From an uncultured Spirochaetales bacterium (GTDB lineage: Bacteria > Myxococcota_A > UBA9160 > SMWR01): a DNA stretch of 64,000 nt. The stretch is taken from assembly GCA_964494795.1 (NCBI GenBank), contig CAZBSV010000074.1, positions 1,053 to 65,052 of the forward strand, in the 5' to 3' direction. Position numbers and translations under genes: made by a program. Shown piece by piece: positions 3,885 to 46,796 of this stretch. The notes under the pieces were generated by a model. The model saw nothing but the letters and a program-made list of their open reading frames with translations. It did not search any database and had not been told where the DNA came from. The number at the start of each line of letters is the position of its first letter. Position 1 is the first letter of the stretch.

Positions 3885-3898
3885 TCACTTCCCGGTAA

Positions 3899-7386: not shown

Positions 7387-10300
7387 TCAGACGAAAGAAA
7401 TCTTCTTCTTGCGCCGCTTGGGGGTTTTCTCAGCCGATTCGTCGGCTTCGACGAGATCGCCAGCGTCCTCTTCGCCAACGGGCCCGGAAGAAGCGCCTTT
7501 CTCTGCCGCCCCGGATCTCGACTCCGCGCTGTCTGCAGCCTCGACCTCCGCGACGACATCGTCGAAGCTCTCCCAAATCGGAGGCGCCTCGGTGGCAGCG
7601 CCGGCTTGCGTCGCGGCCTTGGACTCGATCGCCGCGAGCTGGGTCTCGATCGGCGCGGACTGGGTCGCGATCGGCGCGGAATCGTCGAGATCCCCGAGGA
7701 ACTCGTCGAACGATTCGTATTCGTCGGTGTCAACGCTCGCGCCTTCGCGCGGATCGGATTCCTCGGACTTCTGGAGCTCTGCGAGCCGCGACGCAACGTC
7801 CGCGAAATTCGGATCCAATGCTTGAACTTCTTCATACGCCATGCGTGCCGACGCGATATCCCCGGTCGCTTCGTACGACTTTCCGAGATCCAACTTGAGC
7901 GCAAAAATCATCTCGTTGGAAAGCCCACTCGATGCGAGCGCTTCCTTGAGATGGCCAATCGCTTGCTCCGGCTCACCCGTGTCTTGCGCGCACATTCCCA
8001 GCAGATGGAGACAGCCGATGCGGCGCTCCGGGTCGCCCATCGCGAGCCGAAATTCTCCAATCGCATCGCTGAACAGACCCATCTCCCGATACGCGATTCC
8101 GAGATCGTAGTGGGCTTGATAATCTCCCTCAGACAGCGCCGCACTGACTCCCTTCTTGAACTCGGCAAAGACCGAAGCGAAGCCATCTTCCGAAGTGTTC
8201 CCGCGGCCCGCGGCTCGATCGATTCTCGACGAAGAAGCGCCCGCATCCCGATCGAGCGACTGGCTCAGTTCAGCGGCCAGATCGAACCCGAACGGGTCGC
8301 CGTCCGGTTCGGGTGCGTGGCCCTGTACGGGTGCGTGGCCCTGTTCGGGTGCGTGGTCGTGTTCGGCTGCGTGGTCGTCGGAAGCCTCGGCGAGAGCCGC
8401 AACGGAATCCGCGCGCCCTGCATCCGCTACCGACTCGCCCGGGGTCTCCGACACTTTGGGAACACTCGCGAGCGAACCCGTCTCATCCTGTTCGTCCGAC
8501 TGGGATTGGTCTTCCGCTGCATCGTCGCCGAGATTCGAGTCGAGATCGAGTTCGCCGGAATCCTCGAATCCGAGATCGGCCGCAAAATCTTTTGCGGCTT
8601 CGTCGCGCGCTCCCGCTGCAACGCTTTCTGCTTTCGCATCTCCGGCTTCAACGGCCTCGGCGCCTTTCAGCAGCGCGGTCTCGCGGGCGATCGCAGCGGT
8701 GGCGCCCAGATTGCCCTGCCAGTTCGCGAGATCCTCGCCGATATCCGATCCCGCCAACGCCGCCGATTCGCCATTCTCGGGCTCGGAATTTGCTGCCGTC
8801 GTCGCCGGAGCGCCGACCCCCGGTCCAGCATGATGCCCGCGCTGGGCGGAAATTTCCCCGAGCCGGACCATCGCGTGCGGGTGATTCGGCAGCAGCGCGA
8901 CGATCCGCGAATAGACGGCCTCAGCTTCATCGAGCAGACCCTGCTCCAGGTAGAAGTCCGCTTCTTCGAGATCCTCCGCGACCTTCTCCGGGCTTGCATT
9001 GCTTTCGCTCGGGCCGGAAAACGTCATCGCGTCGCTGTCGACTTCGGCGTCGTCGACGGCGTCCTCGTCGCCTGCAGCGCCGTGGCGGACCGAAATGTCG
9101 GTGATACTGATCTCGTCCAGCTCGGCGTCGCCGGCCGAACCCAGGCCGCCCGCTGCCGCGGCGAGACTCGATTGGCCTGTCGACGCGTCGCTTGCGGAGG
9201 GCTGCGCGAAGCTCGCGTCGTCGATGTCGATCTCGATGTCGATTCCGTGGACCGAAATCTCCGCGAGATCGAGTTCGGGTAGTTCCGAATCATCGAATCG
9301 TGCGGTTTCCGGATCCAGCGTCACACCGGCCGGATCATCGGGTATGGACAATTCATCCGAGGATTCCCCGCTGAGATCGTCTGCGATCCCCTGCCTACCG
9401 GGAGCCGATCCGGTCGCGCGGGGAGTCGGTCCGGCCGCGCGTGGAGCCGATTCGGTCGCGCGGGGAGTCGATCCGGCCACGCGGGGAGCCGATCCGGTCG
9501 CGCGGGGAGCCGGTCCGGCCGCGCGGGGAGTCGGTCCGGCCACGCGGGGAGCCGATCCGGCCGCGCGCGCAACCGACAGCTCGAGTTTCCCGGCGGCCGT
9601 CGGATCGAGCGCCGCGACTCGGCTGCGGAGCAACTCTGCCGAACCGACCTCTCCCGATTCGGCAGCCAATCTCGCCGCTCGAGACCACATCTCGACGGCC
9701 TTCGCGACGTCATCTCCCTCCGCGTAGGCCTCGCCGAGTTTTTCCAATGCCAGGCGGTGATCGAGATCGCGCGCGAGAATGCTCTCGAGGTTCGCGATGG
9801 CCTGATTGCGCTTCCCGTAGCGAAGATAGACGCTCGCTTCGGCCAGCAGCTGACCGACATCGATCTCGTCATCCCGTGGTCCTGAATCGCCCGCGGGCTT
9901 CTTAGCCAGCGAACCATTGGGCGAGAGGCGCGTCATTTCATTCGAGTCGGAGATCGGACTCAACGGACCCGAGCGAATATCGTCCAGATCTCCGTCGCGG
10001 CTCAGAATGCCGAACCCAGAATCGTCATCCGAAACCAGCAGGGTCGTATCGGACAGCAGGTCTCCATCGAGAAGCGTCGTCTCATCGCCAATCAACAGAT
10101 CGTCCAGCAGCTCATCGTCGCCGAGTTTTTCGTCGTCACTGATGTAACCGTTGGGTGTATCCTTCGAGCCGATCTCGTCGAGAGGCACGTAGCGCTGCAA
10201 GATCTCGCGAGTGCGTTCTTCATCGCCACGTTCGCGATAGAGCTCCGCCAACTCGCGATACAGAGCCACGAGATCCTCGTCGCGCTTCTCGAGCCGGTAG

Positions 10301-14555: not shown

Positions 14556-17500
14556 TCAGGCATCGTCCCCATCCGGCACGACCACGCGCGGGGTCACGAA
14601 AACCAGCAACTCCTTGCGGCTCTCGCCGGTTTCGTCGCTTCGGAACAGTGCGCCGAGCAGCGGGATCTTGTGGAGATAGGGGACGCGCGATTGCCGCTCC
14701 GACTTGTCGATCACGTAGATTCCACCCAGGACGAGGGTTTGCCCGTCCTTGATGAGGGTCATCGTCTTGACCTGGTTCTTCGCGATGGCCGGCGAACCGG
14801 TCAGCGTGAAGACGCTGTCGTCGGGGGCGTTGCGCGTCACCGCGATCTTCATGATGATGCTCTTGTTCGCCGTGATGTGCGGTGTCACGTCGAGTTTCAG
14901 CACTGCGTCGACGAATTCGAGCTGTGCATCGCCGTTCTCGAACGTCTGGAACGGAATCGAGACGCCTTGCTCGATCGTCGCCTTGCTGTTGTCGAGCGTT
15001 ACGACTCGCGGACTCGAAATCACCTTGCCGTCGCCATTGACTTCCGCCGCCTGCAACTGCAGATCCACGTTGAATGTATCGTCGAGGATCCAGCCAGCGA
15101 GATTCAAGAATCCGTTCGGGTTCGCGGTGATCGGGTTGGCGATCAGGGCATCATTCCCCGCGGTGGGTGTGTAGAGCCAGTTGTCAGGCAACTTGTCCGG
15201 ATCTGCTCCCAGCGCCCACACGGTGCCGAATTCCCGAGAGAAATCGAGGCTTGCTTCCACGATCTTCGCCTCGATCATGACCTGCGGCGTTTGCGTATCG
15301 ATCGCCTTGATCAGCGCCGTTGCCTCAGCGATCACCGAAGGAATGTCCTTGATGATCAGCGTGCTGGTGCGCTCGTCCGTCGTGACGGTTCCGCGCTCCG
15401 GTGTCAGCAGTTGCTTGACCATGGCGGAAACCTGTTTCACGTCGGCAAAATTGACGGGCTGAAGCTTGACGATCAGGTCTTCGAGCCTTTCCTTCGAGCG
15501 GCGCTCCTGCAGGCGCATTTCCTCTTCCTGCTGGATTTCGACGCTCGGCGCGATCCGCAGAATGTTCCCGACGCGCATGAATCCGAGCCCCTTGGTGAGC
15601 AGGACGACATCGAGAGCCTGATCCCAGGGAACCTCGACCAGGCGTACCGTCACCTTGCCCTTCACGTCGTCGCCTGCGATCACGTTGAGTTCCGACACTT
15701 CAGCGATCAGACGCAAGACGTCCGCGATGTCCACGTCCTTGAAATCAAGTGAGATCCGTCGGCCGATGTATTGCTTTTCGGCCGACAAACCGCCCGGCGT
15801 CAACAAGTCGATCGCGGATTCGGGCTCGATCGAGGCGGGCATCGATTCCGAACTGGAATCGGAAGCCGGCTGCTGCGAAACATCGGAGTCAGCACTGTCC
15901 GGCGTCGAGGCAGGCACGCCCTCCAGCTGAGCCTGGGCGAGCATCGCCTGATCCTGGCTCATCGCAGGCGGCGCAACGGCCACCGCTCCGGTGCGTGGGA
16001 AATCAATCACCAGCAGTGAACCGCGGCGCGTAATCTCCGGTTGCAGATCCGCAGCGCGCTGCACGACCAACCGAACTTCGGGTTCTTCCATTTCGGGCTG
16101 ATCGAATGCGGTGACCAGCGAGATCGGACCACCGGGCTCAGGCGTAATGCGCACGGCGGCCTCAGGGTCCACCTTCGCTCCTCGGAGCGAGATGATCACC
16201 GTCTCGGACGTCGGCTCGAACACCGCGTAGTCGACCGGCGAGTCAGCCAAGACCACGATGCGATCTCGAGTGTCCTGATTGTCGAACTCGATCCCGTAGA
16301 TCGAAACGATCGCGCTGCCAGTCTCGGCGATAGCGGACTCGATTTGCTGCGTCTCCGGAGCCTCCATGGAATCGACAGGCGCGTCGATCGGATCCGCCCA
16401 GGCAGCTACTTCAGCCGGCGTCAAATCTGCTTCGACGACCGGTGTCACTGCAGCGACTTCGCCTGCCGCGATCTCGTCGGCCTCGGCACCCAGCTCATCG
16501 GGCGAGCTGCTCTGCGTCTCCGCATTGCCAATTTCTGCGATCTCGACGGGAGTTGCCATTGGAGCAGCCCCTCCCGTGGCTGCAACCAGAGCGGAGTCGA
16601 TCTCCGGCCCGCGGCCGAGGGCAATCACCAATCCAGCGGCGGTCGGCACGACCCTGCGACCATCGAAGGGCTGCGCGGTACTGCCGCCATCGACCACGAC
16701 GCGGATCTTGTCGACGTGTTCGCCCACGCGGACCCTCGACACCAGCTCCGAATCCAGTTCAATGGTCGAAAGATCCGCTGCATTCTCCAGTTCGAGAAGG
16801 TCTACCACCAGCCGCGACGGATCTTCGAGGGTGAAGGTCATCACGCTCGAGATCAATCCGTTCGCGCGAAGCTTCACGAGGACGCCCTCGCCGGCCTTCT
16901 CGACGTCCACGCCCGTGAAGCGGGTCGCGGGTGTCGGGTCTGCAGCCGCCTCCATCACATCTGCAGCCGCCTCCACCACATCTGCAGGCGCCTCCATCAC
17001 ATCTGCAGCCGCCTCCACCACGTCTGCAGGCGCCTCCATCACATCTGCAGGCGCCTCCGTCAAATCTGGGGACTGCTCAGCCGCGCTAGATGCCCAGGGA
17101 TCGAAGGCATCTGCCTGCGCGTGTTCCAGCGTCTCGGCACCCGAGTCGAGCGCCGCAGCGGCGAGATCGCCAGAAATTCGAATCTGCAATCCACCAGCAA
17201 CGAATTGCACCTCGTGCTCCGCGGGCGCGTCGAGGAAGACTTCTACGCGGGTCATTGCGTCGCTGGTTCCCGTCGAATAGGGCGCCACCAAGACCTTCGC
17301 GACGAGCCCGTCGCCTACGATCACGGGCTCGATCGCTCGATCGGCGCGCGCCGCCAGATCCACGATGATGCGATCCGGGTTCGGTTGCCCGAATGCCGTG
17401 AAGATCGGGTGATCCGGTCCGACCAGCGTAACGATGGTGTCACTTCCATCACGCTCGACCTGGATCTCCGAAATGTCCTGGTCCTGCGACGACTGAGCCG

Positions 17501-17603
17501 TCGTAGATCCGGTGCCAGCGCAGCCAACGGTTCCGCCGGCCAGCAAGGCCGCGAGCGCCGTCACCGCCGCAATGTGGAACCGACCGCTTCTAAATCCCAG
17601 CAT
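14556..17603 (-). CDS. pilQ: type IV pilus secretin PilQ with N-terminal AMIN-type domains
   Basis: The C-terminal secretin domain (...ATIEQGVSIPFQT...TLVLGGIY...RVPYLHKIPLLGALFR...ELLVFVTPRVV) is preceded by an STN/N0-like region and repeated AMIN-like modules. ATG 17603 with a GAGGGGGGG RBS inside the pilP end. Confidence 0.9.
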   Translation of the reverse strand: MLGFRSGRFHIAAVTALAALLAGGTVGCAGTGSTTAQSSQDQDISEIQVERDGSDTIVTLVGPDHPIFTAFGQPNPDRIIVDLAARADRAIEPVIVGDGLVAKVLVAPYSTGTSDAMTRVEVFLDAPAEHEVQFVAGGLQIRISGDLAAAALDSGAETLEHAQADAFDPWASSAAEQSPDLTEAPADVMEAPADVVEAAADVMEAPADVVEAAADVMEAAADPTPATRFTGVDVEKAGEGVLVKLRANGLISSVMTFTLEDPSRLVVDLLELENAADLSTIELDSELVSRVRVGEHVDKIRVVVDGGSTAQPFDGRRVVPTAAGLVIALGRGPEIDSALVAATGGAAPMATPVEIAEIGNAETQSSSPDELGAEADEIAAGEVAAVTPVVEADLTPAEVAAWADPIDAPVDSMEAPETQQIESAIAETGSAIVSIYGIEFDNQDTRDRIVVLADSPVDYAVFEPTSETVIISLRGAKVDPEAAVRITPEPGGPISLVTAFDQPEMEEPEVRLVVQRAADLQPEITRRGSLLVIDFPRTGAVAVAPPAMSQDQAMLAQAQLEGVPASTPDSADSDVSQQPASDSSSESMPASIEPESAIDLLTPGGLSAEKQYIGRRISLDFKDVDIADVLRLIAEVSELNVIAGDDVKGKVTVRLVEVPWDQALDVVLLTKGLGFMRVGNILRIAPSVEIQQEEEMRLQERRSKERLEDLIVKLQPVNFADVKQVSAMVKQLLTPERGTVTTDERTSTLIIKDIPSVIAEATALIKAIDTQTPQVMIEAKIVEASLDFSREFGTVWALGADPDKLPDNWLYTPTAGNDALIANPITANPNGFLNLAGWILDDTFNVDLQLQAAEVNGDGKVISSPRVVTLDNSKATIEQGVSIPFQTFENGDAQLEFVDAVLKLDVTPHITANKSIIMKIAVTRNAPDDSVFTLTGSPAIAKNQVKTMTLIKDGQTLVLGGIYVIDKSERQSRVPYLHKIPLLGALFRSDETGESRKELLVFVTPRVVVPDGDDA
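16939..17068 (-). repeat. 21-nt tandem repeat, about 6 copies, in-frame in pilQ (heptapeptide ADVxEAx)
   Basis: tctgcagccgcctccatcaca / tctgcagccgcctccaccaca / tctgcaggcgcctccatcaca ... encode APADVMEAPADVVEAAADVMEAPADVVEAAADVMEAAAD. Confidence 0.9.
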
Positions 17604-17608
17604 CGAAC

Positions 17609-18199
17609 TCACCCCCCCTCACTACGACGGATCCGCATTTCGATATCTTTTTTCGTCACGTTGCCCAGATAATCCACATAGGTCTCGTTGATGACGACCA
17701 AGTTGTCATCAATCGTTGTTACCATCCCTTCGTTCTTTCCGATTCGCGTGCCCTTCGCGACGATGTAACTATGACCAGCCGGGTCCTCTACCAACGCCCT
17801 CGCGGATCCCGTATTCCAGACCACCGCAACGATCGATAGTTGGCTGACGTCGAATTGCTCCAGCGGTCCGCCAGCCACTTCTTGGCTCGAGATTTCCTTC
17901 CTCTCCCACTCGAACGACCGGAACGGATCCCGCAGGCCCTCCTTGTCGTAGAGCATTCCGGGCCCGGTTCCGGCGAAGCTGCCATCGATCGCCGGTGCGA
18001 CGGGAACCGCGGCGACTTGACTCGGCTGCACGGCGGGCGCCGCCGCGGCTTCACCCTTCTTCGCCTTCCGCTCGGCTACGCGCGCGTTTAGCTTGGCGCG
18101 CTCCTGTTGAAACTCGGCCTGGGTCGGCTGGTTGGCCTCTTCTTTGCAACCGACCAGCGCCAACAATCCGATCGAGATCGCGATGGCTGCAATTTTCAC
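17609..18199 (-). CDS. pilP: type IV pilus assembly lipoprotein PilP
   Basis: GTG 18199 with GGAGGGG RBS. Lipobox LLALVGC. C-terminal PilP domain (LRDPF...LEQFDVSQLSIVAVVWNTGSARALVEDPAGHSYIVAKGTRIGKNEG). Confidence 0.75.
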   Translation of the reverse strand: MKIAAIAISIGLLALVGCKEEANQPTQAEFQQERAKLNARVAERKAKKGEAAAAPAVQPSQVAAVPVAPAIDGSFAGTGPGMLYDKEGLRDPFRSFEWERKEISSQEVAGGPLEQFDVSQLSIVAVVWNTGSARALVEDPAGHSYIVAKGTRIGKNEGMVTTIDDNLVVINETYVDYLGNVTKKDIEMRIRRSEGG

Positions 18200-20508: not shown

Positions 20509-20834
20509 GATTCACAGCCTCCGTCGGCCTGGGACTGCCTTTGGGGTGAGTTCTGACTTGCGCCTGCGCCTCGCGAAGCATCCGAGCCGCGGTCGCTTTG
20601 GAGTGCTTCGCTTCGAGAGACTGCCGATCCCATCGGGGCGGTTCCGAAGACCTGAGACTTTTCGGAAATCTTCATTCCGAGCGCGAGCAGGATCTTGCGC
20701 TTGGTATCGAGACGGCAGGCACGGCCGGCTTCGACGCGATCGATCGTCAAGGTGGAGAGGCCCGCCTTCCGAGCGAGCTCGGCCTTGCTCATCATGAGCG
20801 ATTCGCGATAGCGCTGGACGTTATTGCTCGGCAC
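20505..20834 (-). CDS. XRE-family helix-turn-helix protein
   Basis: 109 aa. HTH_3-like segment (MSKAELARKAGLSTLTIDRVEAGRACRLDTKRKILLALG). GTG 20834 preceded by GGGGGAGGGGG. Confidence 0.7.
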   Translation of the reverse strand: MPSNNVQRYRESLMMSKAELARKAGLSTLTIDRVEAGRACRLDTKRKILLALGMKISEKSQVFGTAPMGSAVSRSEALQSDRGSDASRGAGASQNSPQRQSQADGGCES

Positions 20835-21080
20835 CGCCCCCTCCCCCTGCCTGTCGGATGCCAGCGGCTGATGGCTCGAGCCCCAGGTTCGACGTTCGAG
20901 AGTATCGGCGTGCTGTTACGGGGACTTGAGAGAACCTGCGTCCGGTGCATGGTGTGGCGGATCACCGCCTCGGATGCGCAACTAGCCGGCAATCGAGCGG
21001 GCGAGGTGGGGGTATGGGGGCAGGTCTTCGGCCTGGGGCTGCCTCAGGATCCCGCGGAAAATCACCGATACGCAGGCACG

Positions 21081-22439
21081 ATGCCCGATCGCATTTTGCT
21101 CATCGAGCCCGATCTGAACACGCGAGACGGCCAGCTGATCGCGTTGTCCGAGCTCGGTTTCGATGCCGTGGCAGTCCTCGACGCCGAGCAGGCCTTCCGG
21201 GCGATCGCGGAGGCGCCACCGGACATCATCCTCTGCGACGCCTTCGCCCCGGGCACGGATGATCTCGAACTCGTTTGGCAGCTCTGCAGGCGCGCGCCCG
21301 AAGCAACCCTGTTGGTGACCTCCGCACCGAGCGACTACGAGGCAGCGATGGAGGTCGCCCTGCGAGGCGCTCACGATCACATCAGCAAACCGCTGCGTCC
21401 CTCCGAGCTTCGATTGAAGCTGCGCAACGCGAAAGAGCGGGCGCGGCTGAGCGGCCAATATCGGCTTCTGCGCTGGGAAATTGCCAAAGTGATCGGCGAG
21501 CGTCCGATCGTCGCAGCGTCCGGCCCGATGATTCGGCTGCTCGAGAATATGGAGCGGGCGGCTGGCTGCGAGAGAACGCTCCTGCTGGTCGGCGAATCGG
21601 GAACCGGAAAAGAGGTCATGGCGCGCGCGATTCACGCCCTTTCGAGCCGACGCCATCACAGCTTCGTCGCCGTGCAATGCGCGGCAAGATCGGCCGAGTC
21701 GATATTGGCAGAGCTTTTTGGCGACCGTTCCGCGGCGCCGAATTACGGGGAGCGAACGCAGCGGGGCCTCTTTCAAGACGCCGAGCGGGGCAGCCTGTTT
21801 CTGGACGAAGTCGGAGAGCTGCCGATCCGCGTTCAAAACGAACTCCTCCGCGTGTTGAACGAAAAGCAGGCCGAATCGAGTTCGGAGCCCAGATCCGGCA
21901 CGGTCGATATCCGAATCATCGCCGCTACGGCCCGAAACCTCCGACAAGACGTCTCCGATCGCCGGTTCGAAGCGGAGCTCTTCGAGCACCTCGATCCCCT
22001 CCGACTGGATATCCCTGCTCTACGGGATCGACGCGAGGACATTCCCCTTCTCGTCGATCATTTTCTCGACCACTACCGGCACGAGCTGGTGAAGCCAATC
22101 CGCGGGATCGCGGAAGACGCGCTCGAACGACTCGTCGCGCATCCGTGGTTCGGAAACATTCGCGAGCTGAAGAACGTGATCGAATCGGCCGTCATGTTCG
22201 CGCGCGGAGAGCGGATCGCGATCCAGGATCTTCCACCCCGAATCCTGCTGGCTCCTGCGGCAAGCGACCCGCTCCGCGACGATCTCTGCCTCAAGCGAAG
22301 TCGTCGAGCCTTCGAAATCGACATGATTCGAAGGGCACTGCGCGCCACCGGCGGCAACCGCACCCACGCCGCGAAACGGCTCGAAATCAGCCATCGCGCG
22401 CTGCTCTACAAGATCAAAGAGTATGGGATCGACGCCTGA
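21081..22439 (+). CDS. response regulator with AAA+ bacterial enhancer-binding-protein domain and Fis-type HTH, lacking the GAFTGA motif
   Basis: REC (DIILCD acceptor, ISKPL). Walker A GESGTGKE, Walker [11 protein letters not shown]-terminal GGNRTHAAKRLEISHRALLYKIKEYG. Where GAFTGA is expected (after ELFG) the sequence is DRSAAPNYGERTQ. Confidence 0.85.
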   Translation: MPDRILLIEPDLNTRDGQLIALSELGFDAVAVLDAEQAFRAIAEAPPDIILCDAFAPGTDDLELVWQLCRRAPEATLLVTSAPSDYEAAMEVALRGAHDHISKPLRPSELRLKLRNAKERARLSGQYRLLRWEIAKVIGERPIVAASGPMIRLLENMERAAGCERTLLLVGESGTGKEVMARAIHALSSRRHHSFVAVQCAARSAESILAELFGDRSAAPNYGERTQRGLFQDAERGSLFLDEVGELPIRVQNELLRVLNEKQAESSSEPRSGTVDIRIIAATARNLRQDVSDRRFEAELFEHLDPLRLDIPALRDRREDIPLLVDHFLDHYRHELVKPIRGIAEDALERLVAHPWFGNIRELKNVIESAVMFARGERIAIQDLPPRILLAPAASDPLRDDLCLKRSRRAFEIDMIRRALRATGGNRTHAAKRLEISHRALLYKIKEYGIDA

Positions 22440-22443
22440 GCGC

Positions 22444-23832
22444 TCAGGCGTCGTCCGAGGAATCGAGCCCGAGCTTCTCGAGTCTATATCGAAACGAGCG
22501 AAAGGAGATGCCAACGAGCTGGGCGGCTCGCTTCTTGACCCCGTTGGCGGCCTGCAGCGCCTCTTTGAGCAGGCTCCGCTCGTACTCGTTGACCATCGCC
22601 TCGAGGTCGATTCCGCCACTGTTCGTGATGCGGCGCGGCTCGCCAAATTCCGCGGGACTCAGCACGACAGGAGGAAGTGACTCGAGGTCGATCACCTCCG
22701 TACGACTGAGCGCAACGGCCCGCTCGACCACGTTCTCGAGTTCCCGGACGTTTCCGGGGAAGCGATACTCACTCAACCTGGCCATCGCCTCATCGCTTGC
22801 GTGCGTGACGGCCTTCTCGAGCTCGGTCGAATATTTCTCGATGAAATGAGTGACCAACAGCGGAATGTCTTCCTTTCGATCCCTCAGTGGAGGGAGCGGG
22901 ATCTCGATCACATTCAGCCGGTAGTAGAGATCTTCTCGAAAGCGCCCAGCGACCACTTCTTCATCCAGGCGCCGGTTGCTGGCTGTGATGATCCTGGCGT
23001 CAGAGCGGGCATCGGTGGATGCGCCCACTCGCCGAAAACATTTTTCCTGGATTGCGCGGAGAAGCTTCACCTGAACCGAAAGCGTCAGTTCGCCGACTTC
23101 ATCGAGAAACAGCGTTCCGCCGTTCGCGACCTCGAATAGCCCCTCTTTGTTCTGAACCGCTCCGGTGAATGCGCCCTTGACGTGGCCGAAGAGCTCCGAC
23201 TCCAGCAGGGTCTCGGGAATCGCCGCGCAATTGACTGCCACGAAGGCCTTGTCGCGACGCGGGCCGCCCTGGTGGATGGCACGCGCGACGACTTCCTTAC
23301 CGGTTCCACTCTCTCCGCTGATCAGTACGTTTGCCTTGCTGTCCGAAACCTGGGCGATGAGTTCACACACGCGCCGGATCACGACGCTGTTCCCGATGAT
23401 GGAGCGGTCGCGGCTCTGGCTCCGCAATTCCCGGCGCAATCTGCGGTTTTCACTCGAAAGAAGTTTCTTCTCGAGCGCTTTTTCCACCACGATCCGAAGC
23501 TCGTCGACCTTGAATGGCTTCGTCACGTAGTCGTAAGCACCTTCTTTCATCGCGCTGATGGCGGTCTCCGTGCTCGCAAACGCGGTGATCATGATGACTA
23601 TGGTCTCGGGCGAGGTCTCGGTTGCCGCGTGAAGAAGATCGATCCCCGAGCGGCCTGGCATCTGAATGTCGGAGATGACGACGTCGAAATCATCACTTTC
23701 AAGCTGAACCAACGCCGTGTCGACGTCGCCTGAGGTGACGACGTCATAGCCCTCGCTCCTGAAGAAGATCTCGAGAAACTCCTGCATGCTGCGTTCGTCA
23801 TCGACGACGAGTATGCGAGCCTTGGCGCTCAA
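22444..23832 (-). CDS. pilR: sigma-54-dependent response regulator PilR
   Basis: REC ([10 protein letters not shown]), [21 protein letters not shown], Fis HTH. Follows pilS with a TTGA overlap. Confidence 0.85.
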
Positions 23833-25532
23833 TCCGAATTCTCCGCTCTCGGTATCCGGAGTCGCACCGTCGTGCCTACGCCCACACTGCTCTCCAGATT
23901 GACCGTTCCGCCGTGCTTCTCGACGATTCGATGGACGGTCGCCAGGCCAAGGCCCGAGCCGTCGCGTTTGGTGGTGAAGAAGGGATCGAATATTCGATCC
24001 AGTTTGTCCGGCGGTACTCCGACGCCGTCATCTGCGACGGCAATCTCCAGCCAGCCGACCCTCTTTTCCCCCTCCCCGCTTCTTCGGTCCTCTTCCGAGC
24101 TCGCTTGAGATCGGCCGACATCCAGAGCCCTGGCGCTGACCTGCAATCGGCCACCGCCAGGCATGGCTTGCACTGCGTTGAGAACCAGATTCCACAAGAC
24201 CTGCCGCAGCTGCGCGGAGTCCGCGAGAGCCGTCAGCTGGTCCTCCAGCGCGACGTCGATCTCGATTCCTTCGGGCTTTGTGGCTTCGAACATCTTGAGA
24301 ACCTCGCCGATCGCCTCTCGGAGCGAGACCGCTTCCAATCGGAGCGGGCCCGGACGCGCGTAGCTCAGGAAATCCGAGATCAGGTGGTTGAGCCGATCCA
24401 CCTCTCGCAACACGATGCCCATCAGCTGTTCCGAATCGATCGAGCCTTCCTCGCCAGCCCTGCCATCCTTCAGCATCTCGATCGAGCCGGATATCGCCGC
24501 CAATGGATTCCGAATCTCGTGCGCGATGCTTGCTGACAGCTCGCCGATCGCCGCGAGGCGCTCGGATTGACGCAGGCTGGTCTCCATCTCCACCACATCG
24601 GTGACATCCTGGAAGATCACCACGTGCCCCTCGGCTTCGGCTTCTCGGTCGCGCAGCGCATAGGCTCCGATGCCGAGGTACCGAAGCGTTCGATCATGAG
24701 CCTGATAGGTCATCCGCCTGCGGGAGCGCGAGCTCTCCTCCGGCAGGAGACCAACGCCAAGCAGGTAATCCGAAATTCCCGGCAGAACCAGCTCCACGTG
24801 TTTTCCGATGACTTCTGCCCGATCCAATTTCGTGATTCTTTCCGCCTCCGAGTTGAATGACGTGATATGTCCGTCGAGGTCTGTCGTCATGAGGCCGCTC
24901 TTGAGGCTCTCCACCGTGCGCTCGTGAAGCGTCTTCAGGCGGCTGAGGTCGCTGGTGCGTTGCACGAGCGCCTCTCCGGTCCGCAGCAATTCCGCCGCAA
25001 GCAAACTCGCTAGCCACGCGACGAGAATGATGCCGGCCGCGTTGACCAGCCACATGCTCAGCAGGACGGGCATCGGTTCCGGCGGCCCAATCTCGTGTAC
25101 TGGGAGCCAACCCTGATGGCCGGCCAGGATCACCAATCCATAGACGGAAGCGCCGGTTACGGCACAGATCATCGCTCCGCGCCGCTCCAGCAGCATGGAG
25201 CCGTATACCGCGATGAGGACGTAGAGGAACGCGAACGGGGAATCGGAGCCGCCCGACAGATGGACGAGCGCACTGACGATTGCGATGTCCGTTGCGATGT
25301 TCAGTACAGAAAAGCGCTGGATTTTTTTGACACGGCGAAAGATCAGCCCGTAGGCAATCGTTGCCACGAAAGCGAAGATCAACGTGCCGTAGAAGCCGCG
25401 CCACTCGGCAGGCGAGTAGCTCCAACCCGCGGCCTCCAGCGCGACGGCGATTCCGAGGCTCAGCAACGAAAGCGCGAGCCGAGCCGCCATCAGGATCAGG
25501 AGTTTCTTCTCGAGTCCATCATCGGCGCTCAA
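23829..25532 (-). CDS. pilS: sensor histidine kinase PilS
   Basis: Multi-TM N-terminus, PAS-like region, H-box SASIAHEIRNPL, HATPase_c (DDGVGV...GSGLGLA). TTG 25532 with GGGGAGAG RBS. Confidence 0.8.
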   Translation of the reverse strand: MSADDGLEKKLLILMAARLALSLLSLGIAVALEAAGWSYSPAEWRGFYGTLIFAFVATIAYGLIFRRVKKIQRFSVLNIATDIAIVSALVHLSGGSDSPFAFLYVLIAVYGSMLLERRGAMICAVTGASVYGLVILAGHQGWLPVHEIGPPEPMPVLLSMWLVNAAGIILVAWLASLLAAELLRTGEALVQRTSDLSRLKTLHERTVESLKSGLMTTDLDGHITSFNSEAERITKLDRAEVIGKHVELVLPGISDYLLGVGLLPEESSRSRRRMTYQAHDRTLRYLGIGAYALRDREAEAEGHVVIFQDVTDVVEMETSLRQSERLAAIGELSASIAHEIRNPLAAISGSIEMLKDGRAGEEGSIDSEQLMGIVLREVDRLNHLISDFLSYARPGPLRLEAVSLREAIGEVLKMFEATKPEGIEIDVALEDQLTALADSAQLRQVLWNLVLNAVQAMPGGGRLQVSARALDVGRSQASSEEDRRSGEGEKRVGWLEIAVADDGVGVPPDKLDRIFDPFFTTKRDGSGLGLATVHRIVEKHGGTVNLESSVGVGTTVRLRIPRAENSD

Positions 25533-25559
25533 GAGAACTCTCCCCGCAGCGGTCCGCCG

Positions 25560-25619
25560 GCTAGCGGGGGAAGCTTCGCTTCCCTGGCGGCGCCCCTCGA
25601 ACCCGTTCCGGGTTCGAGC
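25560..25619. repeat. 60-nt double-hairpin extragenic element, copy 1
   Basis: gctagcgggggaagcttcgcttccctggcggcgcccctcgaacccgttccgggttcgagc. The hairpins are GGGAAGC-TTC-GCTTCCC and CTCGAACCCG-TTC-CGGGTTCGAG. It is 57/60 identical to the reverse complement of 47208..47267. Confidence 0.9.
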
Positions 25620-25627
25620 GGCTTGAA

Positions 25628-26839
25628 TCAGCCGATGGTGTCCGCAATCTTGAAGATCGGCAGGTACATCGCGATCAGCATCGCACCAACGGTGCCTCCG
25701 AGGCCGACCATCATGATGGGCTCCAGCATCGCGGTAAGCGCATCGACCGCAGCGTCCACTTCTTCGTCGTAGAAGTCCGCGATCTTTCCGAGCATCGTCT
25801 CCATCGCTCCGGTTTCTTCGCCCACCGCGATCATCTGAACGACCATTCCAGGGAACACCTTCGACTCGGCTAGCGGCTCAGCGATCGTGCGCCCCTCTGA
25901 AATCGCCGTCCGCACCTTTGCGAGTGCTTCTTCGATTACCACGTTACCCGCGGTCCTCGAGACGATGTCCAATCCATCGAGGATCGGAACACCACTCGCG
26001 ATCATCGTTCCAAGCGTTCTGGTGAATCGCGCGACGGCCACCTTTCGAATCAGGGGGCCAAATACCGGCGCTTTGAGAAAGAGGCTGTCCGTCGCGCGGC
26101 GAAAATTCCGAGATCGCCTCCGCGCCTGGCCGAACGCAATTCCCACCGCCACTACACCCACGAGAAAGATTCCGAGCCACTCTTGCATGAAGTGGCTCAA
26201 GTTCACCACCACTTGCGTCGGCCCGGGAAGTTCACCACCGAAGTCCGAGAACATCTTCTCGAAGGTTGGAATCACCTTCACGAGCAGCAACCCGACGACG
26301 CCGACCGCCACCACGAGGACCGTGGTCGGATAGACCATCGCGCCCTTCACCTTTCGCGCCAGCGCATCGGCTTTTTCGAGGTAGACCGCCAGCCGATTCA
26401 GGATCGTGTCGAGAATACCTCCGATTTCACCCGCCGCGACCAGATTGCAATAAAGGGAATCGAACGGCTTGGGGTGCTTGGAAAGCGCGTCGGCGAACGT
26501 CGATCCCTGCTCGACATCCGAGCGGGTTTCATCGATCGCCAACTTGAACGTCGGGTTATCCTGCTGGTCGCCGAGAATCTTCAGACATTGAACCAGCGGA
26601 AGACCCGCGTCGATCATCGTCGCGAACTGCCGCGTGAAGATCACGAGTTCCTTGGTCTTGATCTTCTTCTTGAGAAAACCAAGATATTCCGAAATGTCCT
26701 TCGCTTTTGCGGCGACCTTGACCGGCGTGAGCATCTGACCGCGAAGCTGCGCCTCGACGGCTTCTTTGCTCACCGCCTCCATGGTGCCCGCTTTCACGGT
26801 TCCTTGTCGCGTCTTACCCTTCCAGGTATAGACCGGCAT
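25628..26839 (-). CDS. pilC: type IV pilus platform protein PilC
   Basis: Two T2SSF repeats (FTRQFATMIDAGLPLVQCL ... FTRTLGTMIASGVPILDGL). GGAGGGGG RBS. Confidence 0.9.
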   Translation of the reverse strand: MPVYTWKGKTRQGTVKAGTMEAVSKEAVEAQLRGQMLTPVKVAAKAKDISEYLGFLKKKIKTKELVIFTRQFATMIDAGLPLVQCLKILGDQQDNPTFKLAIDETRSDVEQGSTFADALSKHPKPFDSLYCNLVAAGEIGGILDTILNRLAVYLEKADALARKVKGAMVYPTTVLVVAVGVVGLLLVKVIPTFEKMFSDFGGELPGPTQVVVNLSHFMQEWLGIFLVGVVAVGIAFGQARRRSRNFRRATDSLFLKAPVFGPLIRKVAVARFTRTLGTMIASGVPILDGLDIVSRTAGNVVIEEALAKVRTAISEGRTIAEPLAESKVFPGMVVQMIAVGEETGAMETMLGKIADFYDEEVDAAVDALTAMLEPIMMVGLGGTVGAMLIAMYLPIFKIADTIG

Positions 26840-26868: not shown

Positions 26869-27975
26869 TCAACTCTTTCCAGCGGATCGGCGCCCCGCCT
26901 GATTCGCTCCGCCGCTCTGAGTCATGAGGTTTCGGAGCTCGTCAACGTCCGGGCTTCTACTCATGGCGCTTTCCATCGAAATCAGCCGCCGTTGATGGAG
27001 CGACGCCAACGATTGGTTCATCGTCTGCATGCCAAACTTCTCCTGGCCGACCTGCATCGACGAATAGATCTGATGGATCTTGTCTTCGCGGATCAAGTTG
27101 CGAATCGCTGCATTCGGAATCATCACTTCGAGCGCCATCGCGCGACCGGGTCCATTTGCTTTCGGAAGCAGCGCCTGACACAGAACACCTTCCAGCACGA
27201 AGGAGAGCTGAGCTCGAATCTGCGCCTGCTGGTACGGCGGAAACACGTCGACCACGCGATTGATCGTCTGGACAGCCGAATTCGTGTGCAGCGTCCCGAA
27301 AGCGAGGTGCCCCGTTTCGGCGACGGTCAATGCAGCCTCGATCGTCTCGAGGTCCCGCATCTCGCCGATCAGAACGACGTCCGGGTCCTGACGCAGGATG
27401 TACTTGAGAGCCAGTTTGAAACTCGCGGTATCGGCACCCACCTCACGTTGATTGACGATGCAACCCTTGTGCGGGTGTAGATACTCGATCGGGTCCTCGA
27501 TCGTCACGATGTGCTCGTTGCGCTCCTGGTTGATCTTGTTGACGATCGCTGCGAGCGTCGTCGACTTTCCCGAACCCGTCGGGCCCGTGACCAGGATCAG
27601 GCCTCGGGGCCTCTCGCTGAGCTCGCTCACGATCTTCGGAAGGCCGAGATCTTCGACGCTCGGAATCGTGTACGGGATCGCCCGAAACGCCCCTGAAACG
27701 TTGCCGCGCTGAATGAAGACGTTTCCGCGGAAGCGCGACAATTTTTGCACGCTGAACGAAAGGTCGAGCTCGTTGTTCTCCTCGAAGCGGTGCTTCTGGG
27801 CGTCCGTCAGAACCGAATAGCAGAGTTGCTTGGTTTCGGGAGGCGAAAGTGGCGGCATCCGCAATGGATGCAGCTTTCCATCGATCCGAAGCTGCGGCGA
27901 CGTGCCCGTGGTGATGTGAAGGTCGCTCGCGCCCTTCTCGATCATCGCCTTTAGTAGTTGATGCATGTTGGCCAT
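26869..27975 (-). CDS. pilT: twitching motility retraction ATPase PilT
   Basis: GASDLHI, GPTGSGKSTT, IVTIEDPIE, GEMRD, GHLAFGTLHTNSA, AIRNLIRE motifs. Confidence 0.9.
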   Translation of the reverse strand: MANMHQLLKAMIEKGASDLHITTGTSPQLRIDGKLHPLRMPPLSPPETKQLCYSVLTDAQKHRFEENNELDLSFSVQKLSRFRGNVFIQRGNVSGAFRAIPYTIPSVEDLGLPKIVSELSERPRGLILVTGPTGSGKSTTLAAIVNKINQERNEHIVTIEDPIEYLHPHKGCIVNQREVGADTASFKLALKYILRQDPDVVLIGEMRDLETIEAALTVAETGHLAFGTLHTNSAVQTINRVVDVFPPYQQAQIRAQLSFVLEGVLCQALLPKANGPGRAMALEVMIPNAAIRNLIREDKIHQIYSSMQVGQEKFGMQTMNQSLASLHQRRLISMESAMSRSPDVDELRNLMTQSGGANQAGRRSAGKS

Positions 27976-27984: not shown

Positions 27985-29685
<1,701 letters not shown>

Positions 29686-29841
29686 GGACCGCCTGCCTCC
29701 TGATCCCGACGCGACGCCCCAGCCGCAGACGCCGAATCCAGCGGCGCGCGATGGGGAATCGCAACGATCCCTGCCCCACTGCCCCATGCCGTGGAATTCG
29801 TCGGGAACCCGCCGGGTTATCGGCGGCACGCAAGATGGGCT

Positions 29842-35672: not shown

Positions 35673-35802
35673 TCCCCTCCCCTCGATGCCCCTATGCGAC
35701 TCTATCCCTCTCCAGCTCGATGACTCTATGCCGCGCCGTCCGGCTCGGAAACTCTATGCGGTGATGCCGCTTCGATCAGCCGCTCGCGACCGGATCGGCG
35801 TT

Positions 35803-37140: not shown

Positions 37141-38441
37141 TTGCTGCCTTTTCGCAACTTGACGATCCGGTCGAGCAGTTGCGCGGCGACCGCGCTCTTG
37201 GCAAGCGACGGCAGCTCTTCGATCTGCCCGTCCGGCCAGACGAAGACGGCCGCGTTGGAATCCGAATCGAAGACCGCCGCCTTTTCGCTGATGTCGTTCG
37301 CGACCAGAAGGTCGCAGCCCTTTCGCGCGAGCTTCCTGCTCGCGGCGGCGATCAGGTCGTGGCTCTCGGCCGCAAACCCGACCAGCGTGCGCTCGCCCTT
37401 GATCTCGCAGAGCTCTGCAAGGATGTCGGGATTGCGGACCAACTCGAGCGTCAGGCCCGCCGAATCCGCGAGGTCTTCTTTCTTGATCTTGCGTTCCGAG
37501 TATTGGGCGGGTCGAAAATCGGCCACGGCTGCGGCCATCACGGCGATGCTCGACGCCCCAAACTCCGATAGCACGGCATCGCGCATCTCACTCGCCGTCC
37601 GGACATCCAGCCGGCGCACACCCGCTGGCGTAGTCAGCGCAGTCGGTGCCGCGACGAGAACCACTTCGGCGCCGCGCCGCGCCGCCTCGGCGGCGACCGC
37701 AAATCCCATCTTGCCGGAAGATCGATTGCCCAGATAGCGCACCGCGTCGATCGGCTCGCGGGTCCCGCCTGCGCTGACCAGAATCCGCTCGCCTGCGAGA
37801 TCGCGGGTTCCGAGCAACAAGCTGGCTTCCGCGGCGATCGCCTCAGGCGGCGACATCCGGCCGGCGCCTTCCCAGCCGCACGCGAGTTCTCCGCTTTCCG
37901 GGCCAATCGAGCGGACTCCGCGCTCTCGCAGAACTTCCATGTTGGCACGCGTGGCCGGATGCTCCCACATGTTCACGTTCATCGCGGGTGCGACGAGAAT
38001 CGGCGCGCGCGTCGCGAGCAACACCGCCGACACCAGATCGTCGGCGAGCCCGCAGCGAAGCTTCGCGAGACTGTTGGCGGTGGCCGGCGCGAGGATTGCG
38101 AGTTCCGCCCAGTCCGCGAGCGAGATATGGTCGATCTCCCCTCCTTGGGAGGGGTCGAAGCGATCATTCTGGAAGGGGTCGAAGCGATCATTCTGGTAGG
38201 GGTCGAAGAGATCATTCTGGGAGGGGTCGAAGCGATCATTCTGGGAGGGGTCGAAGAGATCCTTGCGCACTGGGTAACCGGTCAGCGTCTGGACCACCAG
38301 CGGGGTGACGAACTGCTGGGCGTTTTCGGTCATCGCGCAGCGCACGCAAGCGCCAGCCCGACGCAGGATCCGGATCAACTCCGGAACCTTGTACGCCGCG
38401 ATACCGCCGCTGACCGCGACCAGGACACGCCGCTGTTCCAT
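37137..38441 (-). CDS. coaBC: bifunctional phosphopantothenoylcysteine decarboxylase / synthetase, carrying a tandem-repeat insertion
   Basis: VLVAVSGGIAAYK, APATANSLAKL, PAMNVNMW, ACGWEGAGRM, SAGGTREPID and GNRSSGKMG motifs. ATG 38441. Confidence 0.9.
   Translation of the reverse strand: MEQRRVLVAVSGGIAAYKVPELIRILRRAGACVRCAMTENAQQFVTPLVVQTLTGYPVRKDLFDPSQNDRFDPSQNDLFDPYQNDRFDPFQNDRFDPSQGGEIDHISLADWAELAILAPATANSLAKLRCGLADDLVSAVLLATRAPILVAPAMNVNMWEHPATRANMEVLRERGVRSIGPESGELACGWEGAGRMSPPEAIAAEASLLLGTRDLAGERILVSAGGTREPIDAVRYLGNRSSGKMGFAVAAEAARRGAEVVLVAAPTALTTPAGVRRLDVRTASEMRDAVLSEFGASSIAVMAAAVADFRPAQYSERKIKKEDLADSAGLTLELVRNPDILAELCEIKGERTLVGFAAESHDLIAAASRKLARKGCDLLVANDISEKAAVFDSDSNAAVFVWPDGQIEELPSLAKSAVAAQLLDRIVKLRKGSK
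38151..38264 (-). repeat. 24-nt tandem repeat, about 5 copies, in-frame in coaBC (octapeptide D[LR]FDPxQN)
   Basis: ggggtcgaagcgatcattctgg(a/t/g)a units at 38151, 38175, 38199, 38223 and 38247. They encode DLFDPSQN DRFDPSQN DLFDPYQN DRFDPFQN DRFDPSQG. Confidence 0.9.
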
Positions 38442-38570
38442 CGCTTGGCCTCGGGAATTTCCTTTGTTGGCTGCGAGGTTAACGGAACCCGGGCGAAGCA
38501 ACAACGAAGCTTCGGGCCCGCGTGGGTTGGCGTCAGCGCGCCGCTCGATCGAGCCTCTCCGCCGCGCCGC

Positions 38571-40405: not shown

Positions 40406-40441
40406 GAGGGCCCGGCCGCCAAACGCCGGGCCCTCGTTTCT
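40406..40441 (+). terminator. GC-rich stem-loop after the HTH gene (probable terminator)
   Basis: GAGGGCCCGGC-cgccaaac-GCCGGGCCCTC is a perfect 11-bp stem followed by GTTTCT. The T-tract is weak. Confidence 0.55.
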
Positions 40442-40516
40442 GGGACCGATCCCCTCGTTTCTGGGACCGATCCCGTCGTTTCTGGGACCGATCCCGTCGT
40501 TTCTGGGACCGATCCC
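40433..40516. repeat. 21-nt intergenic tandem repeat, 4 copies (tcgtttctgggaccgatccc+1)
   Basis: TTCTGGG recurs at 40438, 40459, 40480 and 40501 (exact 21-nt phase). The array starts inside the terminator tail and ends in the small palindrome CGATCCC-atctaatg-GGGATCG. Confidence 0.9.
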
Positions 40517-40787
40517 ATCTAATGGGGATCGCGCCCCGCCACAAAGCCCGCCGGAACCTCTCCCGGCCGCCGCTGCCGGATTGAGACCCTCGGCGGTCGA
40601 CAAATGGGAAAAGAACTTCACACAGCATCCGCTTCGCGGGCATCTCCTCCACGCGAAATTCATCCGCAACAGATCACCTAGCCACGCGATTTTGATCCGA
40701 TATCGGCTGCGGCCCGGGTCGGGGCACGCTTCTTGCTCAATCCCCGATCAGTGCGTGGATCCATGCGGGATCCGGATCGGAGGCCAG

Positions 40788-44780: not shown

Positions 44781-45866
44781 GTGAACCAGAATCGATCCAG
44801 ACAGCAGAGCGAGGCCCTCGTCGCAGAAGTCGTCCGCGCGCAGCTCGGGGCCGCGGTCAGCCGATTCAGCTGGTTGCGCGGCGCACTCGGCTTTCGAAGT
44901 TTCTCGAGGATCTGGCTCGAAGCATCTGAAACAACAAGACAATCTCTCCCTGAAACGCTGATCGCGCGGATCGAGGCCGCGGACGATCCGAGCCGCAGGC
45001 CCGCGGGCGTTCTCGCCGAGCCCGCCCTCGAGCCGATCCGCGCACTGCTCGAATCCGAGGGCCTTCCGGTGCCGCGGCGCTTCGGCGCGGATCCCGCGCG
45101 CGGCATCGAACTGCTCGAGGACCTAGGCGAGCGCTCGCTCGCGGATTTTGCGCGCAGCGCGGATGCGCGAGAACTCGACAGCCTCTACCGCGAAGCCTGC
45201 GAACTCCCGCCGCGGCTCCAGCGGATCGAAGCGCGCCCGGGCGTCGCAAACTTCGCGCGCCAGCTCGACGACGCCCACTTGCGCTACAAGGCCGAGCGCT
45301 TCGCGCGCTGGAGTCTCCACCGCGATCGCGCGGCGAGCCCCGAGGAGGCCACGGTCGTGCGCGAAGCTTTCGAGCGGATCGCGCGAGAGATCCGCAGCGC
45401 GCCGCGGCGGCTCGCGCATCGGGACCTGCAAAGCGCGAATCTCCAACTCGTCGAAACGCCTCGAGGTTCAGCTGCCAAGATGCCGTTTCGACTCGTGATG
45501 ATCGATCTCCAAGGTGCGTTCATGGCACCGCCCGAATACGATCTGGTCTGCCTGCTGCGGGATTCCTACGTCGAGCTCACTGAAGCCGCAGTGGCCGCGC
45601 ATCTCGCGCGCGTGCGATCCGCGCTGCCGGACTGCCCGGACGCGGAGATCTTTCAGCTGCGCTTCGACCTTCTCACCCTCAGCCGCAAGGCGAAGGACCA
45701 CGCGCTGTTTCGCGCGGTCGCGCGCGAGCGCGGGGACGAGCGCTATCTCCAGTACCTGCCAGCGACGCGCCGCTATCTCCAGACAGCGGCCGCGCGCGTT
45801 GCATCAAAATACCCAGAATACGCTGACTTGAATCATCTGATTCAAGCGATTCCGGAGCTTCCATGA
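44781..45866 (+). CDS. amgK: aminoglycoside-phosphotransferase-fold kinase, AmgK-like (anomeric MurNAc/GlcNAc kinase)
   Basis: GTG 44781 with AGGAAG RBS. APH catalytic region LAHRDLQSANL...MIDLQGAFMAPPEYDLVCLLRDSY. It is 4-nt-overlapped with a MurU-like gene. The symbol is tentative. Confidence 0.6.
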   Translation: MNQNRSRQQSEALVAEVVRAQLGAAVSRFSWLRGALGFRSFSRIWLEASETTRQSLPETLIARIEAADDPSRRPAGVLAEPALEPIRALLESEGLPVPRRFGADPARGIELLEDLGERSLADFARSADARELDSLYREACELPPRLQRIEARPGVANFARQLDDAHLRYKAERFARWSLHRDRAASPEEATVVREAFERIAREIRSAPRRLAHRDLQSANLQLVETPRGSAAKMPFRLVMIDLQGAFMAPPEYDLVCLLRDSYVELTEAAVAAHLARVRSALPDCPDAEIFQLRFDLLTLSRKAKDHALFRAVARERGDERYLQYLPATRRYLQTAAARVASKYPEYADLNHLIQAIPELP

Positions 45867-46783: not shown

Positions 46784-46796
46784 ACGCCTCTGCGAA

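Follow-up and report, generated by a model that had tools for sequence, protein, structure and literature searches.

A CTAG-bracketed double-hairpin repeat at two loci of an uncultured Myxococcota lineage, both empty in the relatives examined

How does the same double hairpin of about 60 nt come to stand at two unrelated places of one bacterial genome, and what kind of sequence is it? The question is raised by a 64-kb stretch of DNA from an uncultured member of the Myxococcota (GenBank assembly GCA_964494795.1, contig CAZBSV010000074.1, positions 1,053 to 65,052 of the forward strand), referred to here as the window. One copy of the double hairpin (copy A) lies in a type IV pilus gene cluster, between pilC and pilS, and the other (copy B) lies at the 3′ end of anmK. 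An earlier note on this DNA had described the pair as a dispersed structured repeat resembling repetitive extragenic palindromic (REP) sequences, bacterial interspersed mosaic elements (BIMEs) or MITEs (miniature inverted-repeat transposable elements), rather than as a gene-specific terminator. The evidence assembled below makes it probable, by a modest preponderance, that the element is a small, lineage-restricted, non-autonomous, palindromic insertion element that is REP-like in shape and placement and carries CTAG, not GTAG. It may also target CTAG.

The alignment of window positions 25560-25619 with the reverse complement of 47208-47267 gives the same 57/60 identity that had been reported, and the shared sequence extends further, to a block of 66 nt (25560-25625 on the plus strand versus 47267-47202) with five differences. 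The similarity ends there, and the sequences flanking copies A and B outside the block are unrelated. A repeat search of the window pairs the two copies over 64 nt at 94%, and blastn-short in the 64-kb window returns the second copy with an E value of 5.6e-23. The left end of the block is GCTAG in both copies, while the right end is GCTTG in copy A and GCTAG in copy B. The consensus of the block reads GCTAG-C-GG-(GGGAAGC TTC GCTTCCC)-TKGCGGCGCMC-(CTCGAACCCG TTY CGGGTTCGAG)-CK-GCTWG, in which the bracketed segments are hairpins 1 and 2. Within the 60-nt span, the three differences fall where they had been placed, in one loop and in the stretch between the hairpins: one is directly 3′ of hairpin 1, one is in the spacer, and one is in the loop of hairpin 2. 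The remaining differences of the 66-nt block fall in its last bases, and four of the 56 core positions differ between the copies. The parts of the two copies are as follows.

25560 to 25564, plus strand: left flanking repeat of copy A, GCTAG (GGCTAG with 25559); the relatives have ...CCGGCTCC... at the matching place
25565 to 25620, plus strand: 56-nt core of copy A, 98.9 bits with the covariance model
25568 to 25584, plus strand: hairpin 1 of copy A, GGGAAGC-TTC-GCTTCCC, 7 bp (8 bp with a G-U pair counted) and a 3-nt loop
25596 to 25618, plus strand: hairpin 2 of copy A, CTCGAACCCG-TTC-CGGGTTCGAG, 10 bp and a 3-nt loop
25621 to 25625, plus strand: right flanking repeat of copy A, GCTTG (GGCTTG with 25620), one mismatch to the left GCTAG
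47263 to 47267, minus strand: left flanking repeat of copy B, GCTAG, containing the anmK TAG stop at 47265-47263
47207 to 47262, minus strand: 56-nt core of copy B, 100.1 bits with the covariance model
47243 to 47259, minus strand: hairpin 1 of copy B, stem exact
47209 to 47231, minus strand: hairpin 2 of copy B, CTCGAACCCG-TTT-CGGGTTCGAG, with the loop TTT
47202 to 47206, minus strand: right flanking repeat of copy B, GCTAG, a perfect 5-nt direct repeat of 47267-47263

The two hairpins are GC-rich, mutually unrelated in sequence and 11 nt apart, with stems of 7-8 bp (hairpin 1) and 10 bp (hairpin 2) and a loop of 3 nt each. Both stems are exact in both copies, so the perfect conservation claimed for them holds. 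Either strand of the element folds as two separate hairpins, with energies of −39 to −45 kcal/mol and z-scores of −3.6 to −5.8 relative to shuffled sequences. Two other likenesses within the element were dropped. The segment GGTTCGAG recalls the T-arm of a tRNA and has no complementary 3′ stem after it, and the 11-mer CGAACCCGTTC, common to hairpin 2 and a nearby 27-nt tandem repeat, was judged to be a chance match (E = 0.67).

Because the element contains an NheI site (GCTAGC) and a HindIII site (AAGCTT), and because its source is a contig of a metagenome-assembled genome, an assembly or other technical artefact, for example a piece of synthetic sequence, has to be considered. This origin is exceedingly improbable in view of the copies themselves, which differ at 5 of 66 positions and are embedded, together with a direct repeat, in chromosomal surroundings that are syntenic and frame-preserving. 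Plasmid records give no match beyond chance; the match found in the plasmid collection, 52 nt at 81% in an Ensifer megaplasmid (E = 0.01), is without hairpin 1 and was judged fortuitous.

The surroundings of both copies are ordinary chromosomal genes. Gene identities in the window come from Pfam scans of part of the open reading frames (ORFs); the nucleoside triphosphate (NTP)-transferase gene was placed by synteny with the relatives.

22444 to 23832, minus strand: pilR-like sigma-54 regulator
23829 to 25532, minus strand: pilS-like kinase
25628 to 26839, minus strand: pilC
26869 to 27975, minus strand: pilT
27985 to 29829, minus strand: pilB
45863 to 46783, plus strand: NTP-transferase gene
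47263 to 48411, minus strand: anmK

Copy A occupies most of the 95-nt pilC-pilS spacer, which is bounded by the stop of pilC (25628) and the start of pilS (25532). Measured from the stop codon of pilC, which is TCA at 25628-25630 in plus-strand letters, its flanking repeat is 2 nt and its core 7 nt away. In the pil transcript, copy A appears as its reverse complement. On the other side, a putative pilS ribosome-binding site, GGGGAGAG, is located just upstream of the TTG start (~25540-25547) and would have been left untouched by the insertion. Copy B, 21.6 kb away, is in the same sense as the anmK transcript, at a gene end that, by synteny with the relatives, is convergent with the NTP-transferase gene. 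The two copies are therefore opposite in orientation relative to their local transcripts, as the earlier note had it. Its description of both copies as intergenic is accurate for copy A and needs amending for copy B, which lies after anmK but strictly overlaps the last 5 nt of the gene, including its TAG stop (47265-47263).

Are these sequences old parts of the two loci or additions to them? By protein searches, the window belongs to an uncultured lineage of the Myxococcota, the hits bearing the labels Myxococcota bacterium or Deltaproteobacteria bacterium. The orthologous loci of relatives were fetched by exact-protein look-up, the next relatives being ~88% identical in the AnmK and PilC proteins. 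The pilC-pilS spacer measures 40 nt in three relative lineages (L020/L021, L022-L026 and L028-L035; 15 contigs from independent samples) versus 95 nt here, one example being TGA-CTACGGAGCCGGATTCGATCCGAACCCGCGGAGAAGGCTC-TTG. In L020/L021, a later pilS start was chosen by the gene caller, and the underlying spacer sequence is the same. The pilS side of copy A carries the spacer sequence that the window has in common with the relatives (...AGCCGG...GCGGAGA..CTC TTG), and comparison with the relatives identifies the GGCT of the left flanking repeat of copy A as native spacer sequence. Likewise, the 3′ end of anmK is without the element in four lineages (L015/L016, L017, L018 and L019), and in L015/L016 the convergent gene is found only 28 nt beyond anmK.

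A comparison at larger scale gives the same picture. The window is collinear with contig k141_625272, which carries both L017 and L022, from ~15.4 to 58.3 kb at 77-80% nucleotide identity. Tandem-repeat expansions aside, copies A (~55 nt) and B (61 nt) are the largest extra intergenic sequences relative to this contig. At the anmK site, the unaligned stretch between the flanking high-scoring segment pairs is 113 nt here versus 52 nt in L017, an excess of 61 nt that corresponds to the core of 56 nt and 5 nt more. As far as these sequence comparisons reach, both copies are lineage-specific additions to otherwise conserved core-genome loci.

Since both sites are empty in the relatives, the copies are not gene-specific terminators that were inherited with their genes. 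The argument of the earlier note on this point is strengthened by the sharp, GCTAG-marked boundaries and by the lack of a U-tract: none follows either hairpin on either strand, and a terminator scan detects 0 terminator-like sites in 25300-25900 and 46700-47400. The element does share with intrinsic terminators the position of its GC-rich hairpins directly after stop codons; unlike them, it has no U-tract, consists of a double hairpin common to unrelated loci, and is absent from the orthologous loci.

The same observations bear on a broader alternative, in which the element is a functional cis-element kept by selection, i.e., a bidirectional factor-independent terminator or attenuator, an RNA-stabilizing 3′ structure, or a binding site for a protein or RNase, with mobility incidental or absent. 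The very stable pair of hairpins on both strands, the location of both copies right after a stop codon, and the identity of the stems, with the differences confined to loop and spacers, are what such a function would produce. The absent U-tract speaks against it, and so do the opposite orientations at the two loci and the fact that the relatives manage both loci without the element. No Rfam family is matched by it; the only gathering-level match in the window is a tRNA, and permissive E-values add nothing except sub-threshold, generic miRNA-like hairpin noise. None of the differences between the two copies is compensatory, so covariation gives no sign of selection on RNA structure. Maintenance as a cis-element is, in sum, very unlikely.

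How the additions were made is recorded, at least in part, at their edges. The core of copy B is bracketed by a perfect GCTAG (47267-47263) and GCTAG (47206-47202), and that of copy A by GGCTAG (25559-25564) and GGCTTG (25620-25625); both sites are empty in the relatives. The motif is rare in this DNA. The window contains 26 CTAGs versus 215 expected from base composition, an ~8-fold depletion that is similar or stronger in the loci of the relatives (L015-L026; e.g., 6 versus 76 and 2 versus 54 expected). Three of the 26 are at the ends of element copies, and the only pair of CTAGs in the window spaced 30-150 nt apart is that of copy B. Eight are intergenic, and five are formed by a C and the TAG stop of a called gene (examples at 18857, 27985, 47263, 52849 and 54252).

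At anmK, the order of events can be read to some extent. The gene also ends in CGC TAG (L015, L017) or GGC TAG (L019) in the relatives; therefore, the left GCTAG of copy B is the native stop and predates the insertion. Moreover, cutting out the whole CTAG-to-CTAG block would strip anmK of a nearby stop, which means that at least one of the two CTAGs is native. The flanking repeat could thus be a duplicated, sequence-specific target. It could also consist of the GCTAG target and the element's own right end, likewise GCTAG, if insertion occurred immediately 3′ of the target; a repeat borne by the element on one side is possible because the same repeat is present at both sites.

A related arrangement is seen in one relative. 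In L019 (4671-4806), a second GGCTAG lies 130 nt downstream of the anmK stop GGCTAG, and the 5-kb locus has no CTAG besides these two. The pair could be what a different insertion left behind at this CTAG target, or a coincidence, the probability of meeting one such pair across all inspected loci being estimated at roughly 20%.

The edges also bear on whether a mobile family is needed at all. A structured 3′-end sequence that arose at one locus may have been carried over to the other a single time, through illegitimate recombination or repair. That only two copies were seen in all searches agrees with such a one-off event, as does the lack of a mobilizing gene in the window, and the pilC-pilS spacer of the relatives contains CCGAACCCG, which has a faint likeness to hairpin 2. 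A single ectopic copy, however, does not readily account for two sites that are both derived relative to all relatives, for sharp and identical boundaries at both of them, or for the fact that one rare motif brackets both of them in direct repetition and at anmK coincides with a pre-existing stop. Four of 56 core positions also differ between the copies, suggesting either insertions of no very recent date or source copies that had already diverged. We consider the one-off event unlikely.

A mobile origin could take the form of a classical MITE moved in trans by a CTAG-targeting DDE transposase, with GCTAG as a true target-site duplication. The candidates are an IS630-type enzyme duplicating the TA within CTAG and an IS481-family enzyme duplicating NCTAGN. 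CTAG-targeting transposases are documented: the IS481-family ISRe46/TnRErm46 duplicates NCTAGN, and the TAG preserves the stop codons of target genes (PMC6794481), much as the insertion at the C-TAG stop here leaves anmK intact. IS630 prefers the TA in 5′-CTAG-3′, to go by the title of Tenzen and Ohtsubo 1991 (cited in PMC2170065). With the CTAG-targeting MITEs of the IS630/Tc1-mariner and IS481 families, the element shares its small size, its non-coding nature and a CTAG-containing direct repeat around both copies, and the random orientation of the copies also fits.

The ends of the element are nonetheless not those of a DDE substrate. Terminal inverted repeats are absent beyond CTAGC: the first 20 nt and the reverse complement of the last 20 nt agree at 4-6 of 20 positions under any duplication model, which is no better than shuffled sequences. 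The termini are not TG...CA. The flanking repeat is 5 nt long, not 2 or 6, and lacks the sixth base needed for NCTAGN (copy B has C and G there, copy A has C and A). The unusually small size of 56 bp is far below that of known bacterial MITEs, and no such transposase is present among the window proteins scanned. A DDE-mobilized MITE is accordingly an improbable identity for the element, on a par with the one-off event.

There remains the comparison with REPs and their kin, to which the insertion element favored here is closest. Tagged REPs are small GC-rich stem-loops with a stem of 6-13 bp and a loop of about 2-3 nt; they occur no more than 20 bp from the upstream stop, in spacers whose neighboring genes are unidirectional or convergent, and their tag often gives a TAG stop (PMC3733652). 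Group-3 REPs, such as REPSm of S. maltophilia, combine a tetranucleotide with an 8-bp perfect stem and a 3-nt loop, and REPSm is cut by its REP-associated tyrosine transposase (RAYT) at a CT dinucleotide (PMC8266576). The element has GC-rich, perfect stems of 7-10 bp and 3-nt loops, which is the stem-loop of a REP. It is positioned a few nt from an upstream stop, between unidirectional (pilC-pilS) or convergent (anmK/NTP-transferase) genes, its tag supplies a TAG stop, and either orientation occurs. On both strands, (C)TAG is followed 1-3 nt on by a perfect GC-rich hairpin with a 3-nt loop. The tags consequently face outwards as in head-to-head REP dimers, each an unpaired tetranucleotide ending in TAG 1-3 nt outside its hairpin.

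The likeness has clear bounds. Unlike REP dimers, which are pairs within one family, the element contains two unrelated hairpins; it has a flanking direct repeat, a feature not described for REPs; and the cognate RAYT gene (tnpA-REP, Y1 HUH), flanked by REPs, that marks a REPtron is not seen among the window proteins scanned. Like a BIME or REPIN (a REP doublet that forms a hairpin), it is a composite two-hairpin unit of ~60 nt that behaves as a single repeat unit. In BIMEs and REPINs, however, the arms are inverted copies of the same REP and can pair into one long hairpin, whereas the arms of the element are dissimilar and form two independent hairpins in the minimum-energy fold; its left end agrees with the reverse complement of its right end at 4-8 of 20 positions, as shuffled sequences do. 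The earlier comparison with REPs, BIMEs and MITEs is thus apt for the signature of an inserted repeat and not for the CTAG tag, the unrelated hairpins or the missing terminal inverted repeats. The element falls outside the formal definitions of tagged REPs, BIME/REPINs and MITEs, yet works most like a REP-type hairpin element.

Palindrome-associated transposable elements (PATEs) derived from IS200/IS605 offer a further parallel. They, too, have a subterminal hairpin at each end without inverted terminal repeats, and insertion beside a fixed short motif, as in PATEs, would leave the motif on the left flank. Unlike in PATEs, the motif abuts the hairpin and is not about 10-20 nt away from it, the two hairpins are dissimilar, and no TnpA or TnpB gene is seen. 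The 4 nt 5′ of the hairpin feet, which would correspond to the guide tetranucleotide of a PATE, complementary to the cleavage site, differ between the hairpins (TAGC versus GCCC/GCAC).

The extent of the family was addressed by several searches. Within the window, blastn-short and a covariance model built from both copies, run with filters off, find two copies only and no third copy, full or partial. The model scores ~100 bits per copy versus 13.6 bits for the best unrelated match, which is located at 40376 and is an ordinary stop codon followed by a terminator-like hairpin. Public collections were scanned with the exact hairpin-2 pattern CTCGAACCCGNNNCGGGTTCGAG, namely GTDB (one genome per species), the JGI metagenomes and IMG/VR. 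The eight matches in GTDB genomes and the six in JGI metagenomes are unrelated coding or terminator palindromes, all without hairpin 1, and IMG/VR gives 0 matches with two patterns.

Several results weigh against the reading as an insertion element. Two copies are all that are known: neither blastn nor the covariance model detects one in the loci of the relatives (20 loci, ~260 kb, partly redundant), the exact hairpin-2 scans of GTDB, the JGI metagenomes and IMG/VR contain none, and six-frame peptides of both copies, compared with 5.8 billion proteins, return nothing at E ≤ 10, with no read-through translation. A RAYT/IS200-like gene, for which the earlier note had recommended looking, is not found among the window proteins scanned, nor is any other transposase or an integrase. 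In place of the GTAG, GYAG, GYRG, GTRG, GTMG or GTGG of tagged REPs, copy B has CTAG as its tag on both strands and copy A has CTAG on one strand and CAAG on the other, and neither end of the element carries the CGTC of CGTC-tagged REPs. The right repeat of copy A has a mismatch. The intergenic alignments that define the empty sites are only approximate because the closest relatives are at ~88% protein identity. Finally, the strand-specific insertion of PATEs, in which orientation follows the direction of replication, is not observed, as the copies have opposite orientations under a GC skew that is negative across the whole stretch containing both, although with two copies this is a weak test.

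The label of dispersed repeat is accordingly justified by two loci and by none beyond them in the window, the ~260 kb of relatives' DNA or the public collections scanned. Because the searches outside the window came back empty, the element appears to be confined to the lineage of the window, which is otherwise unsampled. By extrapolation, the presence of two copies within 64 kb, with 4/56 core positions differing between them, suggests a family with other members.

On the favored reading, the element would have entered two unrelated places in this Myxococcota lineage after its split from all sampled relatives, each time landing at or beside a GCTAG/CTAG motif that now brackets it as a direct repeat. 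A CTAG-seeking element would tend to reach gene ends because many of the surviving CTAGs are C-TAG stops or intergenic; it would land at the 3′ ends of genes and regenerate the stop codon, as at anmK. What recognizes its folded single-stranded DNA may be an HUH enzyme of the REP/RAYT or IS200/IS605 sort, with its gene in another part of the genome. An HUH-type enzyme acting on folded single-stranded DNA is slightly favored over a classical DDE transposase because inverted repeats are lacking at the ends and nothing is conserved apart from the hairpins 1-3 nt inside CTAG on each strand. If the element is transcribed, the 3′ end of anmK and the pilC-pilS spacer would each acquire a pair of very stable hairpins that lack a U-tract. 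By analogy with REPs, these hairpins could block 3′-exonucleases, stabilize the upstream mRNA, or pause or attenuate read-through from pilC to pilS.

The window contains further repeats and structured sequences. Those nearest to the element are in the anmK/NTP-transferase spacer (46784-47262), which is 28 nt long in L015/L016, about 320 nt in L017 (11150-11473) and 479 nt here; its counterpart in L019 is 4677-5075. The spacer includes a 54-nt perfect hairpin with a 20-bp stem (hairpin Y, 46985-46925, minus strand) that is conserved in both L019 and L017; in L017, three of its pairs have changed in a compensatory way. In a second one (hairpin X, about 47125-47055), the stems differ completely between lineages and the loop core GCTCCAACC(G/C)CATGTCGC is conserved. 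This loop core is the reverse complement of that of hairpin Y. It occurs nowhere else in the window or in the loci of the relatives, and Rfam yields generic hairpin noise only.

Short-period tandem arrays (18-27 nt) are found at 46793-46927, 9379-9588, 16918-17085, 38122-38289, 40431-40535, 8304-8374 and 56419-56498. The first of these, a 27-nt unit repeated five times, is intergenic, expanded relative to L017, and starts within hairpin Y, in its 3′ arm; the matching place in L019 has a 23-nt array, which breaks the contig. The 24-nt array at 38122-38289 looks like an in-frame expansion within coaBC (DFP), in the N-terminal part, and exceeds its L017 counterpart by ~66 nt. The array at 16918-17085 is inside a 1018-aa ORF (14556-17612) at the position of the relatives' secretin gene, which is putatively PilQ-like. 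Smaller intergenic extras relative to L022/L017 occur at 35681-35771 (19 + 19 nt) and 38546-38570 (25 nt).

Two longer repeats have other origins. A 45-nt direct repeat (96%; 2681-2725 and 5803-5847) duplicates the 3′ half of tRNA-Gly(CCC) (5803-5878, minus strand) at a distance of 3.1 kb and looks like the attL/attR pair of an island integrated at a tRNA. The 2681-5847 interval encodes a methyltransferase (2883-3884) and an MFS transporter (4156-5691) and no integrase. Inverted repeats of 100 nt (70-82%) at 56884-56984, 58910-59010 and 21963-22067 were rejected as a mobile repeat; they reflect protein paralogy, as they fall in three paralogous sigma-54 response-regulator genes (56496-58001, 57956-59536 and 20598-22439).

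On present evidence, the double hairpin is an ordinary small repeat. A bolder proposal, which we put forward as a long shot, is that it represents the first CTAG-tagged class of REP-like double-hairpin mobile elements, moved by an enzyme that is possibly of the HUH type and homing to the few surviving CTAG sites, where regeneration of the stop codon and harmless landing at gene 3′ ends would provide a built-in safe haven. If it turns out to form a multi-copy family, tagged palindromic repeats would gain a third tag type beside the GTAG and CGTC superfamilies, and the element would be a clean example of tetranucleotide depletion channeling a sequence-specific mobile element to gene ends. Such repeats have been little described in uncultured Myxococcota. 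For the organism itself, copy A is the mark of a recent change, specific to this lineage, within the genes of the type IV pilus cluster, and a double hairpin of −40 kcal/mol between pilC and the downstream sensor kinase gene pilS could alter the coupling of their expression.

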